From assembly GCF_006345805.1 (NCBI RefSeq), contig NC_043009.1, forward strand, positions 2,914,001 through 2,978,000: a stretch of 64,000 nucleotides of DNA, written 5' to 3'. The stretch comes from Octopus sinensis. Its lineage: Eukaryota. Shown piece by piece: positions 5,026 through 63,527 of this stretch. A program made the position numbers and the translations under genes. Each line of letters starts with the position of its first letter. Position 1 is the stretch's first letter. Below the pieces are notes generated by a model. That model was not told where the DNA came from and ran no database searches. It worked only from the letters and a program-made list of their open reading frames with translations.

Positions 5026-7469
5026 AAATAGATACAATACATTGATATAATTAGATACGATTCTACATTGATACAAATAGATACAATTCTACATTGAATT
5101 ATGATTGTCATTACTATTCAAGACCGTATGTTGCATAGTTTGATCCGAAAGACAGTATTACATTTCATTTTTGCTACATGCATCTTAGAGTGCATGTGGT
5201 CGGAATGTTGTATTCTTCGTAATTTAAAATTCGTTCAATTTACATGACTTTACGAAACGTCTCCAAGTGACTTACAGTATGTACTATGCATACAGAAAAA
5301 CACAAATTCGTGTTTGGAATTAGAAATGCGGCTGAATTTTAAACTCTGGAATAAGGAAGTGAAGTACATCCTCTAAATTGTTTAATCGTAAAAATGGTAA
5401 GAGCTGAAAACTACTAAACCCATTAGCGAGTTTTAAAAAACCTGAAAAAACTGCTTTGTGTTAAAGTTTTCAGCACAGATTATACGGAATTCAAATACAG
5501 TCGAGGCCAGTTTTGAGTTTTATTCCCTCAGGATCGATAAATAGGTCACGTATCCTGTTCTGATGTCAATTTCTTCTCATTCTCTTACTCTTATATTTCG
5601 TCTGCCTCTCGCCCCTGATTCTTTCAGATACGTATCGGCTCTGAACATGTCTGGAGAGAATTGTACCACCTTAGTTCTAAAAAATACCCAACGCACGCTA
5701 TATGTCATATCATAGCACCAACGACTCCACCAACTAGAGCTGAAAGAGAAATGCAAGACAAACGAAGGTGTATGGCATATTGGACACATTACAAAATATC
5801 TATAATTGTTGTGATAACTAGAATGAAATGATGTGACGTCCATAAAATTTCACATGTGCTTGAGAAATAGCATTAATTTTATTTTTCAAATAGTCATGGA
5901 TTTATGAATGAAATAAGGTTCTGAACCAGAGTGCTATATTCTAGACGTGGACATATTGGGAGATATTTACCGCAAAAATAGTTTGGGGAATAAAAATAAA
6001 ATGGTTAATCCGGGAATTGAAACCGAATCTTGGTTTGAGGAATTAGAGTAATATTGAGTAAGCTCTTTGTTTCTCAGAAGCTAAATGATATGATTATTAG
6101 CAATACCGATCAATTTAACACACATAAGCATGCTCGTTCTGTAGACATGTGCTTCCTCCAAATAACTAAGAAGATTTGGGAAGAAGTGAAGTAGATGGGG
6201 AAAATGTAATATCATGAGGAAGAGAAAGAAAACAATAACAAGTGCGAAAACAACAATATCTGTTTTAGTCAGTTTAAGAATTTAATGATCTTTTAAGAAG
6301 AGTTCAATTAAACTATAGCTGTATAGATGATCGATAAGTTAGTTACAATGGATATGTGTGGAGAAAGAATCAAAAGAATATGAAGAATCAGCGAAAAAAG
6401 CACAATAATAAGATGGAGAAAATCAAAAGATAAAAACGGACGAAAAAGAAGGAGAAATGATGGAAATTTCAAAGAAATGAATGGGAGAAAGACAGAAATA
6501 GTTAAGAAAAATGGAGAAGAAAGATGTTAAAGAGAGAAGTGAAGAAAATGTTTTTGCTTAAAGATTGATTTTTGATTATTTTAGTAGAGTCTTAAATCGA
6601 GATTATAACATGTGTCTATGTGTGTGTGTATGAGATTGGGAGAAATAGCGTTAAAGAGAGATAGAGATAATTAAAGGTAGTGATAGAGAGAGAAAGAGCG
6701 TGTGAGAGATTGAAAAAGAAAAGGAAAGCGTGAGAGAATAGAAGAGAGTGAGAAGTCGTAGCTTTTGGTGAAAAATAAAACTATATCCTGCAAATGAAAA
6801 TAAAATAAAGATGAGGCCAGGATGAAATAATGTTTGGCAATACATGTGTTTCTTGAGGCGATTTTTCTGTATAATCAGTGATTATAGAAATAAAAATCAT
6901 TAGAAAAGGAGCGCCGTGAAATCCTGAAGATTTGAAGAGAGAAAATGAGTAACGTTTAAATTCGAAATATAATGAAGATTCAAGCATGAAATAAACAAAA
7001 AAAAATTCGGTCTTAATGAAGCTACTGCTACATATAATAATGTTGGTAATGGGTTGAATGAAGCGAATAGTTGCAGTAGAATTAGTTAGATTAGAAAGAG
7101 CAGTAGGTAGGTCGGACTGTGGGAATTATACTGCCTGTCTAAAAACGAAATGATAGAAGAGGGAAAAATCAAAATCAAAATATGAAAAAAAAGGAAACAA
7201 AATAGAGGAAAATAAAATTATGTTTGCCATTTATATGGAGTATGATACCTTGCAGCAAAATTTTGGTTTGGGGCAACTAATAAATAACCTAGTTCATTTC
7301 CGAAACACACACATACACACACACACACATAAAACACACACACACAGCTACATGCGTGCGCACACACTTACGCATTCTTGAGCTTATGTGTGTATGCATG
7401 CGATTATATGGATATATTTATATATATTTATAATACAAAATTGGACAAGAATGCAAAACATCCGCAAAA

Positions 7470-7725
7470 CATCAGTTAGGTGATAGAAAAATGGGACAAT
7501 AAAACATCCAGATAGACGATGCGAAGAAAACAAGGACGGGTCATTCGAAGTTTTCTTTCCTCAGTCAAGTACCAGATTATCTTCGAAATTTCGGCTGAGT
7601 ATACTTGAGATTGCTCCAATCAGGCCAGCCCCAAGGAAAAGCTAAGCTAAGAGCATTAGATTCCTTGGAAGAAAGCAGCGAATGTATATAAAAACAAGGA
7701 CGGGAAAAAACAAGCAATGTTACAC
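7470..7725. repeat. Probable interspersed repeat, class unresolved
   Basis: Island between microsatellites with an internal direct repeat aaaacaaggacggg (7527-7540, 7691-7704). No coding signal. Confidence 0.4.
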
Positions 7726-56019: not shown

Positions 56020-56900
56020 TTGATATAACTTCCCCAAAACAAAGAAATGTATTTTAAAATATGGCAAATATAATGGAAAACATTCGTAAGAGAAGCAACC
56101 GAGGGTGTCTTAACTATAATGTAATGGCTAAAGTTTCGATTATGTCCATATAGTAAAATAACTTAAATTATCATACGTAGTGTTTTAAATAATTTCAACT
56201 AGGTGTGATTTGCGAAACAAACATTTCGTTGCTATTATGTTAAAGTGGGATATATCAAAATTTGTCCAAATGCATTTTTTCAATATTTAGTTTTGTTTGC
56301 AATAGCCGGTTCTTTTGGTAAAACTATCATATCTACAGTTGCTTCAGATGCAAAAAAATAAAAAGAATTCTAAAACTACATTTCGTTACTTACGACGCTT
56401 TTGCATAATAGCAATGATGTGTAAATTCATTCACATGGAGAAAGGACAATGAAGGAAATCACAATAATATTAATGATATGCATTCATGAAGTTAGCTTAT
56501 GTTTTGTACCTGTCGCACTCCCAGATAACCATTGGTAGGTATTTTTCTTAGAAATAAAGAAGTTCTTTTAAAGCATAAATTTTAATTCCACGTTGAGGTC
56601 TGGGGTTCCATCAGGGCTGTCTCTTGGCAAAGAGCCTACTGCATCTAGTCCACACTTGTGTTGGACGGCAGTAAACGGATTTACTAAATTAAATGAAGTG
56701 ATTATGGATATCCTTCTTAACTTTCATTCAGCAGATGGCTTAATAGATATGGGTCATCACTTATGAAACTTGATATAAATTTTACGAAAGGATTTAACAG
56801 TATGTGAAAGAAGTTTTCAAGTCAGGGAGTTTCGCAGGTTGGGACTGCCACAATCATTCTTAATTTGAGATCCTTCAGAAATGTTTATGCAGATTGAATG
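56020..56900 (+). mobile_element. Possible ancient L1/Tx1-like reverse transcriptase remnant
   Basis: Ordered, plausibly spaced degenerate motifs LPQNK..IWQI, NYNVMAKV, SGV(H)QGCLLA and SADG (cf. LPK..NWRPI, DYKILAK, GVRQGCPL, YADD). Requires frameshifts. Confidence 0.35.
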
Positions 56901-57990
56901 TGATTCTTTGTAGGCTCCATTAATTGTTTTATTTTTGTGAATTCTGTGTCAAATAATCAATTTCCTTATTATTTATGCGGGTAGACTACATTTGACAAAC
57001 CAAACGCCATTTAAGAATGAGAATATATTTACCCTCAACAAATACAGGGCGCCAAAACAAGACAAATTCCACTTACTGAATATATGGACATATACGTGAT
57101 CATTAAGCCTCCCTAATTTCCTGTCTTCCCAATCTATCAATGTGCAGACCATATTCCAGATCAAACAAGAATTAATAAGAGGAGTTCGTTTCTTAAAGGA
57201 TATAGACCAATGTTGAACTGTCTCAAAAAAGACATGGGTAATTTGCGAATCAACATCCTATATGAAGTAATTATTGTAGAATATCTACATGTGGTCGTTC
57301 TTAGGAAAAACTAGAATTCATGTAGCAGTTATGTAACTTATTTGCTCCTCAGTATTTGATTTGCCTCACACTGTGTTAATAAAGAAATGATATGTTCAAA
57401 CATGTTCAATAAGAGGAAAGGATCGCTAAAGCATAACATTATTATTCGACAGAATAATAAACAATAATTATCTATAACACTTTCAGGTAAACAAATATTG
57501 TATTACTTATACATTCACCCGTTTGCAACTGTCATGTGACATATTCAAAGTAGATCAACTCTTATGTGAACTTCTGCGACTAACGCATGAATTTCATACA
57601 CGAACATTGCGTCATCAACAGATAGTGTTTTGAGCCACATTAGCACTTTGAAAACAAAGTATTCTTATAAGAATAGCCAGAAAAAAAAACATGTTTTGCG
57701 AGACAGCTCCATGTACTTTACACTTTTAAAAATCTGATACGAAACTGCTAGAGTGCATTCATATATGTTAAAATATAATCACATTCTGATTAACTCAAAT
57801 ATATTCTCTGTGCATTTTCAACTTAATATCTTATGTATATATATATATACAACATATAAACAAGGGCGAAAGAAAAAATGTCTAATGCCAAATATGCCGA
57901 AAATAGACACATTATCCATAACCATATAATGTATCACAATATTCACGTTACTCGAAGAAGGACGACAGAAATTTCTAACAAATTCCGTTA

Positions 57991-58051
57991 TTACCATATC
58001 GGACACGATTTCAGAGTTAGTTCATAAGAACCTTCCCTTCGTCAGTGATAA
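57991..58051 (-). ncRNA. Intact type I hammerhead ribozyme
   Basis: UUAUCA-CUGACGA-AGGG(aaGGUUCuuauGAACUaa)CUCU-GAAA-UCG(UGUC)CGA-U-A|UGGUAA. All three helices pair, the core is canonical, and the AUA triplet predicts a cut between 57997 and 57996. Confidence 0.85.
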
Positions 58052-58299
58052 ATGCGGCAAAGAAATAAATGAAATACTTACTTATACCTATGGAAAAAAG
58101 CGAACAGTAAGTCATGAGCACAACTAAGTACCCCAAATATATCCAAAATAGAAATATATATATATATACATATATATATAAAGAGATAAATATACAAACA
58201 TAAAAATATATTATCTATCTCTATATATATATGTGTGTGTGTATGTGTTTGAGCGTATGTAAATGTAAACATGTATATCTACATACGCACTTTGTATCT

Positions 58300-62401: not shown

Positions 62402-62432
<31 letters not shown>

Positions 62433-62434
<2 letters not shown>

Positions 62435-63352
62435 CACAATCAAGGAATGGCCATAATAGGCCATTCACCCACTAGAAATAACAGCCAAAGCTTCAACCGC
62501 AAAATAACATTAATTCCGCAAACCAGGAGAAAATTAAAAAAACATTTACCCTGTAATTTCTTATACGGGCTTGATTTAATTTAATCAGGTTAGTTTACCA
62601 TTAAACAATAGATGAAACGGTGCATCGTATAAGAAATTACAGGGTAAATGTTTTTTTTTTAATTTTCTCCTGGTTTGCGGAATTAATGTTATTTTGCGGT
62701 TGAAGCTTTGGCTGTTATTTCTAGTGGGTGAATGGCCTATTATGGCCATTCCTTGATTGTGATGTTGAACTTATAAATGGTCTATGACTATTTAATTTTT
62801 TCCCACTAGGCCGCTGGTGGCAAATAAATTCTACGAAATTTTTTGCCACCCTATATTGATTAATTATGAATTTTCTGGTTAATTCCGTAATGGAATCGGC
62901 GGCTTATATTTGCTGCCGATAAATTTGGCGCGAGTGCGATGATTTGAAAGTTTTAGGTCAGATATTGCCGAGGGAAGGATAGAGGTACCTCGTGATAATA
63001 TCTGCTGGGATCTGGCTGTTTCTTACTGACGAATCTATCGGCCTATGGAAAATTGGCTTGATTTAATTTAATCAGGTTAGTTTACCATTAAACAATAGAT
63101 GAAACGGTGCATCGTATAAGAAATTACAGGGTAAATGTTTTTTTTAATTTTCTCCTGGTTTGCGGAATTAATGTTATTTTGCGGTTGAAGCTTTGGCTGT
63201 TATTTCTAGTGGGTGAATGGCCTATTATGGCCATTCCTTGATTGTGATGTTGAACTTATAAATGGTCTATGACTATTTAATTTTTTCCCACTAGGCCGCT
63301 GGTGGCAAATAAATTCTACGAAATTTTTTGCCACCCTATATTGATTAATTAT
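62433..63352 (+). mobile_element. Young non-coding retrozyme/Penelope pLTR-like element (inverted arm plus 1.6 tandem units, period 487 bp)
   Basis: 62568-62867 equals 63055-63352 apart from T-run length. 62433-62567 is the reverse complement of 62626-62763. Contains an intact HHR, has no real ORF, and sits in (TA)n. Confidence 0.88.
63019..63123 (+). ncRNA. Intact type I hammerhead ribozyme with long stem II
   Basis: UUUCUUA(63019-25)-CUGACGA(63026-32)-AUCUAU...AUAGAU(63033-63100)-GAAA-CGG(UGCA)UCG-U-A|UAAGAAA(63117-23). GUA triplet at 63114-63116. Confidence 0.9.
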
Positions 63353-63362
63353 AAAAAACATA

Positions 63363-63393
<31 letters not shown>

Positions 63394-63417
63394 CAGATAC
63401 ATATAGATACATACATG

Positions 63418-63478
<61 letters not shown>

Positions 63479-63527
63479 ATACATGTCTCTGTGTGTGTGT
63501 GGATGTATATATATTCTTTTATTGTTT

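Follow-up and report, generated by a model that had tools for sequence, protein, structure and literature searches.

A non-coding 487-nt hammerhead family in Octopus sinensis with a Penelope-like integration footprint

Introduction

What kind of element combines direct repeats, an inverted arm and a type I hammerhead ribozyme at a single locus, and how did it come to be there? The locus lies in a 64,000-nt stretch of the Octopus sinensis genome (contig NC_043009.1, positions 2,914,001–2,978,000), here called the window, in whose coordinates positions are given unless a locus is named. A sequence-only reading had described it as a young retrozyme, predicted to make a circular RNA and to be mobilised in trans by a Penelope RT. 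For animal retrozymes generally, the route back into the genome is a hypothesis that draws on co-occurrence with Penelope-like elements (PLEs) and on pLTR homology.

Layout of the locus

The direct repeats (62568–62867 and 63055–63352) are the same except for a T run (10 vs 8), and the inverted arm (62433–62567) is the reverse complement of 62626–62763, with a run of 7. These repeats, the (TA)n flanks and the lack of any credible ORF at the locus were all borne out. The inner end of the short arm lies 4 nt upstream of the cut site and that of the long arm lies within stem II (Table 1).

The hammerhead landmarks, including the 68-nt stem II and the 487-nt spacing of the GUA sites, were found where the reading had placed them. 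The ribozyme consists of an 8-bp stem I, a CUGACGA core (63026–63032), stem II, GAAA and a 12-nt palindromic stem III. Stem I is formed by 63019–63025 with 63117–63123, and an eighth pair (G-U) extends the helix. The two GUA sites, at 63114–63116 and 62627–62629, had been called equivalent. Their positions are correct, but the upstream copy lacks the core, starting only within stem II, and the locus is left with a single complete ribozyme. With just that ribozyme, and with an inverted arm (135 nt) to which RNA just past the first cut site would pair, the locus looks like a product rather than a source of mobilisation.

Table 1. Features of the 487-nt element in the window, and positions of further hammerhead types in other loci
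Feature	Position	Strand	Remarks
(AT)n target, left flank	62403..62434	.	TA-rich flanks across family
Short arm, 135 nt	62433..62567	-	outer 3′ end is site A, 134 nt past cut
Long arm, 1.6 monomers	62568..63352	+	outer 3′ end is site B, 238 nt past cut
Upstream GUA site	62627..62629	+	stem III palindrome and stem I 3′ strand, without catalytic core
Cut-to-cut monomer, 487 nt	62630..63116	+	36.8% GC, non-coding
Complete type I hammerhead	63018..63124	+	predicted cut after 63116
Hairpin directly before site A	63215..63236, also 62730–62751	+	pairs conserved across monomers
104-nt 'tail'	63249..63352	+	between site A (63248) and site B (63352); one arm only
Hairpin directly before site B	63301..63335, also 62816–62850	+	pairs conserved across monomers
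(AT)n target, right flank	63360..63481	.	begins after short A run
Further hammerhead types	L175–L181; L160:694; L216:12 and 462; L224:3144; L227:4521 and 4916; L186:2621		

A large and recently active family

A genome-wide check of copy number and identity had been proposed. A search of the genome (2.72 Gb) returned 1,324 candidates; among the 40 scored there were full units, 94–98% identical and arranged head-to-tail. A 22-mer across the cut site had 2,011 exact matches, while a control had 0. The first 100 of these matches group into 45 places, which suggests about 900 family loci. The junction of site A with (AT)n was matched 1,048 times and that of site B 1,506 times, overlapping duplicates included. 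As read from the assembly, the element represents a single insertion from a large family of non-coding repeats, whose dispersed arrays lie nearly all in (TA)n. The description of a young, mobile, non-coding hammerhead repeat is supported, and the family is far larger than one locus.

The loci mapped comprised 39 chosen by score, 40 chosen by position on contig C1 and 20 more from the junction lists; L028, L105 and L106 were left out as copies of one insertion. Insertions repeated with matching flanks were seen in L104, L105 and L106, in L027 and L028, and in L079, and reflect either segmental duplication or assembly redundancy. There are 147 full monomers of about 465–505 nt in 61 loci, and the longest single-arm array has about 8.6 monomers. 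A tree of 61 monomers contains several subfamilies up to about 10% apart, and the short end branches in each (median 0.0045) indicate that several lineages were recently active. The alignment of monomers took in 55/85 per-locus representatives, mostly gap-free. The unit in the window differs by 1.4% from its closest relatives and carries six substitutions that are nearly private to it. In a further subfamily, represented by L235 and related loci, GUC replaces GUA at the cut and stem II has an A-A mismatch at its base.

Conservation and folding of the ribozyme

Each core position except N7 is kept in 257–264 of the 264 complete copies examined, which come from 86 loci. Among these copies, N7 is C in 143, A in 72 and U in 48, and H17 is A or C; both are hammerhead positions known to tolerate change. 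Across 38 distinct sequences, 98.3% of stem cells pair, and the base pair at the foot of stem II is broken in 10 of the 38. Double-sided changes affect six pairs: three lie in stem I, two in stem II, and the sixth joins the palindrome's two central bases, for which pairing is possible in a duplex but not in a hairpin. On the tree, the compensatory changes come down to a few events passed on within clades, and six such pairs were reached by 5/500 shuffles. Conservation over stem III is inflated, as loci were picked by likeness or by an exact motif there.

Stem II had been thought to favour an RNA-level structure on the plus strand, and this is upheld. Its inner hairpin has 18 pairs over 19 positions, four of them G-U, and folds at -22.7 kcal/mol (z -5.7) on the plus strand vs -12.3 kcal/mol (z -2.5) on the minus strand. 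No Rfam family matched at gathering score anywhere in the 64,000-nt window, probably because stem II is long.

In the minimum-energy fold of the monomer, the core mispairs with the 3′ strand of stem III; the active fold is 2.1 kcal/mol higher, and the predicted probability that stem III forms is low (P 0.04). Taken alone, stem III has a predicted energy of -17.5 kcal/mol as a duplex vs -0.2 kcal/mol as a hairpin. In the folded circle of the window's subfamily, stems I and III are both predicted to form rarely. The claim that ligation rebuilds the whole ribozyme is correct by sequence, but in the monomer stem III would seldom form. According to these models, the ribozyme is likely to depend on a dimer and the circle to be protected. 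Hammerheads acting as dimers are described in amphibian satellites and PLE pLTRs (PMC4209133). As cleavage was reported in only 1/9 dimers of vertebrate retrozymes (bioRxiv 10.64898/2026.07.22.740005), self-cleavage is not to be assumed here.

Outer ends

Numbered from the cut, the outer 3′ ends of the arms fall at 131–139 (site A) or 231–243 (site B), and each site sits right after a conserved hairpin. The pairs of both hairpins are retained in 102–108 of 108 monomers, with one U-A/U-G change in the hairpin before site A and no common two-sided change in that before site B. A CCTAT-like short motif before site B in several families was not significant.

A TA-rich flank was found at 69 left and 70 right ends of 76 distinct loci. 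Two divergent arms with outward 3′ ends are carried by 53 of the 76, and the remaining 23 have a single arm (14 with site B, 9 with site A). The two-armed loci combine site A with site B in 46/53 cases and have one non-canonical end in 7/53; A+A or B+B was found in 0/53. The insertion in the window obeys this rule, with site A on the short arm and site B on the long arm. In the junction lists alone, which cover the first 148 Mb of contig C1 (64 A ends and 79 B ends) and partly share loci with the mapped set, 39/39 divergent pairs within 6 kb were A+B. At clean inner junctions, the arms overlap by 1–6 nt in 19/43.

In vitro, the purified PLE protein of the green anole nicks and extends both target strands and prefers AT-rich DNA, and its RT has two internal start sites downstream of the hammerhead, the stretch between them forming the genomic 'tail' (PMC11167929). 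Insertion was possible without ribozyme cleavage, and the start sites were alike on both strands (PMC11167929). Craig et al. described 5′-truncated inverted PLE copies, a 30–40-bp tail, often at a single end, and (TA)n targets (PMC8557442), and the supplement of that paper lists octopus Naiads with a (TA)n preference. Two fixed ends, one per arm, with a 104-nt tail between them are, in terms of the genomic ends, the PLE tail signature, and the link to PLE-type integration is stronger than the locus alone had allowed the earlier reading to show. The strict A+B pairing suggests that two RTs are held at different sites of one RNA; this asymmetry is not established, as the in vitro start sites did not differ between strands.

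A second family of non-coding type I hammerhead repeats, its unit 475 nt long, has a copy on the minus strand of the window at 57838–58155. This family has 3,061 candidates and two ends, near cut+150 and cut+235–240, with one end per arm in 9/10 two-armed loci (the query favoured one end). It has no significant likeness to the 487-nt family. At least four more hammerhead types were seen in the genome (Table 1). In almost all of these, stem III is self-complementary, and in several, stem II is 39–57 nt long; the repeat period in L178 is 373 nt.

Inner ends and the template

The inner ends are evenly spread round the monomer, with 7/125 within 10 nt of the cut where 5.1 were expected (P 0.25); pieces shorter than 18 nt were left out and a few ends just upstream of the cut were counted as position 1. 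The cut is crossed at least twice by 52/125 arms. A linear cut monomer is ruled out as the template, because the inner ends do not pile up at the cut, and this even spread points to a circle or an uncut multimer. The junction strings derived from the element, a selection-biased set, are perfect in 169/177, and one is without 2 nt at the cut.

The median difference between units is 4.0% from locus to locus and 1.0% inside an arm or from one arm to the other. Among 46 multi-piece loci, a count that leaves out L079, 32 have no variant recurring among units, and five are without any variant. Few recurring variants and low divergence within loci are as expected from one repeated template. In the other 14/46, variants recur in a mosaic, L033 consisting of two alternating haplotypes and L024 of two blocks, and one rolled monomer does not explain these. 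Both arms stop at one unrolled point in 4/43 two-armed loci (L042, L102, L110 and L113; permutation P 5e-5), which leaves a near-perfect palindrome with 3–34 extra central bases. In L042, the stop comes only after a full unit has been passed; an intact circle accounts for this less well than a linear multimer or a fold-back does.

Contigs of three runs guessed to be RNA cover 29, 29 and 28 of the 29 bins, with the unit joint bridged in two; as that joint is identical for circle and tandem, the contigs cannot tell the two apart, nor is transcription or its strand shown thereby. We put the chances that a monomeric circle is the usual template at about even.

Search for a coding partner

The genome holds young coding elements with an RT, a CxxxxCxxC linker and, at the C terminus, GIY-YIG; at least 26 copies among the best-scoring matches are identical over the last 175 residues. 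These elements end in (TA)n, with a tail of about 37 nt in 4/27 ends listed, and are plausible helpers for the 487-nt family. The partner search covered the best-scoring part of about 19,000 PLE candidates. No sequence common to the monomer was found in 50 PLE loci screened, except in one beside a known array, and PLE 3′ regions aligned with the family no better than shuffles did. By scan, no canonical hammerhead belonged to the young coding PLE elements. In a motif search of the genome, a short stem II combined with the same stem III yielded 0 matches; combined with the same stem I, it yielded family copies, chance matches and a third non-coding family.

Linkage to PLE ORFs was a further check that had been proposed, and no examined arm enters such an ORF. 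In 79 + 20 loci, no family arm runs into any ORF and the long arms merely repeat the monomer. PLE fragments near family loci lie beyond the TA flanks, and no monomer frame has any likeness to a PLE ORF. At these loci, the copies were not seen as pLTRs of a coding family. A 3.6-kb gap between copies on contig C1 proved to lie between two separate insertions and to have no ORF, and A-B pairs 1.4–3.9 kb apart turned out to be arrays of greater length that belong to other subfamilies. Another reading, that the window's second hammerhead is a pLTR of the coding PLE in L071, was considered and rejected, the arrangement being a 5.9-kb duplication in which the coding element ends before the hammerhead.

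In L071, a full coding PLE stands between the copies of a 1.65-kb direct duplication (1–1653 and 5934–7591; 99.3%), which contains unrelated repeats and is possibly a large target duplication or a carried flank. Two young coding PLE families (L071:1674–5374; L225; L226) have an extra upstream frame of 480–495 codons that overlaps the RT+GIY-YIG frame, whereas canonical PLEs have a single ORF. A broken PLE-type RT fragment on the minus strand of the window (56502–56872) is 32–55% identical to the L071 protein.

Proposed mechanism and alternatives

We conclude that the element is very probably a non-autonomous PLE-mobilised retrozyme. The explanation as a whole, that of a non-coding 487-nt family copied by PLE RT/GIY-YIG from an RNA that is probably circular, is also likely. 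The part of the earlier reading that stands is a young, non-coding hammerhead repeat, its mobility and its PLE-type integration; no specific mobilising PLE was found.

Arrays with at least two full ribozymes would be transcribed, and cleavage after GUA by neighbouring ribozymes would follow, most probably in a dimer with a swapped 12-bp stem III. A host ligase would close the 487-nt monomer, and the weak monomer fold would protect the circle. A PLE protein dimer would nick both strands of a TA repeat and prime two cDNAs on the same RNA, one at site A and one at site B. Each RT would pass the cut/ligation junction for a variable distance, and the cDNA ends would be joined, often with an overlap of 1–6 nt. 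Only tentatively, and as something short of an even chance, do we propose the most specific version: a PLE dimer on one circular RNA, two hairpin-marked sites 104 nt apart, dual rolling-circle RT from opposite nicks, and several such circular parasites in the genome, with no sequence kinship to the coding PLEs by which they are moved. If this is true, the rule of one site per arm is an in vivo record of an asymmetric two-RT complex and explains PLE tails and inverted ends generally.

The same element and the same PLE machinery could work from an uncut linear multimer transcribed from existing arrays, with circles as a by-product. We consider this unlikely, though the predicted weakness of the monomer fold, the mosaic arrays in 14/46 loci and the arms that stop at one point in 4/43 loci all speak for it, as does the finding that unprocessed RNA was the main in vitro substrate of the anole PLE (PMC11167929). 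A route that is linear only cannot lengthen arrays, yet arms reach 8.6 units; across 46 loci, a variant occurs in the same round of both arms at just one site; and selection on the ribozyme needs a role.

That the copies are truncated pLTRs of an unfound coding PLE, their tandems grown in place by unequal exchange, is improbable. Local amplification is discussed in bioRxiv 10.64898/2026.07.22.740005, where Xenopus retrozymes are related to pLTRs, and the ends and targets here are indeed of PLE type, interspersed haplotypes fit local exchange, and the best-scoring part of the PLE candidates is what the partner search reached. However, no arm enters an ORF in 79 + 20 loci, no monomer frame is PLE-like and both arms are tandems of one haplotype with random inner ends. 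We give hardly any credence to an assembly artefact at the window locus. The copies there do differ in homopolymer length alone, and TA flanks are difficult to assemble, but that tandem and inverted layout, with both of its ends, is repeated at dozens of loci from several subfamilies. In addition, contigs of run X15, possibly the assembly's own sample, hold the tandem joint (22) and the junction of site A with (AT)n (11).

Comparison with known systems

The retrozyme class and its PLE origin are already in print. Judged by sequence, the 487-nt family works like the metazoan non-LTR retrozymes of Cervera and de la Pena (2020; PMC7229834), with every feature that could be looked for here: dispersed tandems of short non-coding units, from dimers to multimers, low GC, one type I hammerhead per unit with an intact core, and no LTR-type terminal repeats. 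A circular template and PLE mobilisation are proposed in that paper too. The units described there are 170–400 nt, as against 487 nt with a 68-nt stem II and a 12-nt palindromic stem III here, and expression and cleavage were demonstrated, whereas the present family is known from sequence and predicted folds. Two-armed insertions, fixed internal ends and (TA)n targets were not found in its main text.

Vertebrate non-LTR retrozymes are argued to be PLE derivatives in bioRxiv 10.64898/2026.07.22.740005. The unit range reported there (51–972 bp) includes 487 nt and, as in the present family, most arrays have no more than 7 units and co-occur with PLEs. The PLE link described there consists of co-occurrence and pLTR homology, while here it is an integration footprint and no homologous pLTR was found among the PLE loci screened. 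A term search of the whole text found no mention of a mollusc, a tail or an initiation site. In the literature searched, we found neither a two-site, one-per-arm footprint in a retrozyme nor a paper on a cephalopod retrozyme; Repbase or Dfam may list the family as an unknown or Penelope repeat.

The features that mark mobilisation by a PLE are present, namely two fixed 3′ ends, a one-sided tail, an inverted arm, partial tandems and a (TA)n target; the mark of an autonomous PLE, an RT + GIY-YIG ORF between pLTRs, is absent at the locus and at the family loci examined. The EN+ PLEs described in PMC11167929 (PAc/Poseidon) and PMC8557442 (Neptune, Naiad and Hydra) likewise have two RT starts downstream of the hammerhead, a tail at one end, a 5′-truncated inverted arm and AT-rich or (TA)n targets. 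Their tail is 30–40 nt vs 104 nt here, and the present family has no ORF, the whole element being a rolling 487-nt unit. Non-coding PLE dependence and multicopy head-to-tail insertions are shared with the non-autonomous MRC1 of Chlamys (PMC8557442), whose type has 3′ sequence in common with an autonomous family; here none was found, and there is a full hammerhead. The hammerheads of amphibian satellites and PLE pLTRs (PMC4209133) share a weak palindromic helix III and predicted dimer action, but their helix III is 1–2 bp and their helix II 4–8 bp, vs the 12-nt palindrome and 68 nt here.

What the octopus family adds to these systems is the footprint of PLE integration itself, found at about a thousand loci, with all ends readable in units that are short and non-coding. 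The family yields exact start sites and a pairing rule for in vitro tests with PLE proteins, as well as a prediction that separates a circle from a multimer. As the footprint ties retrozymes to PLE integration, the question of how they are mobilised becomes directly testable.
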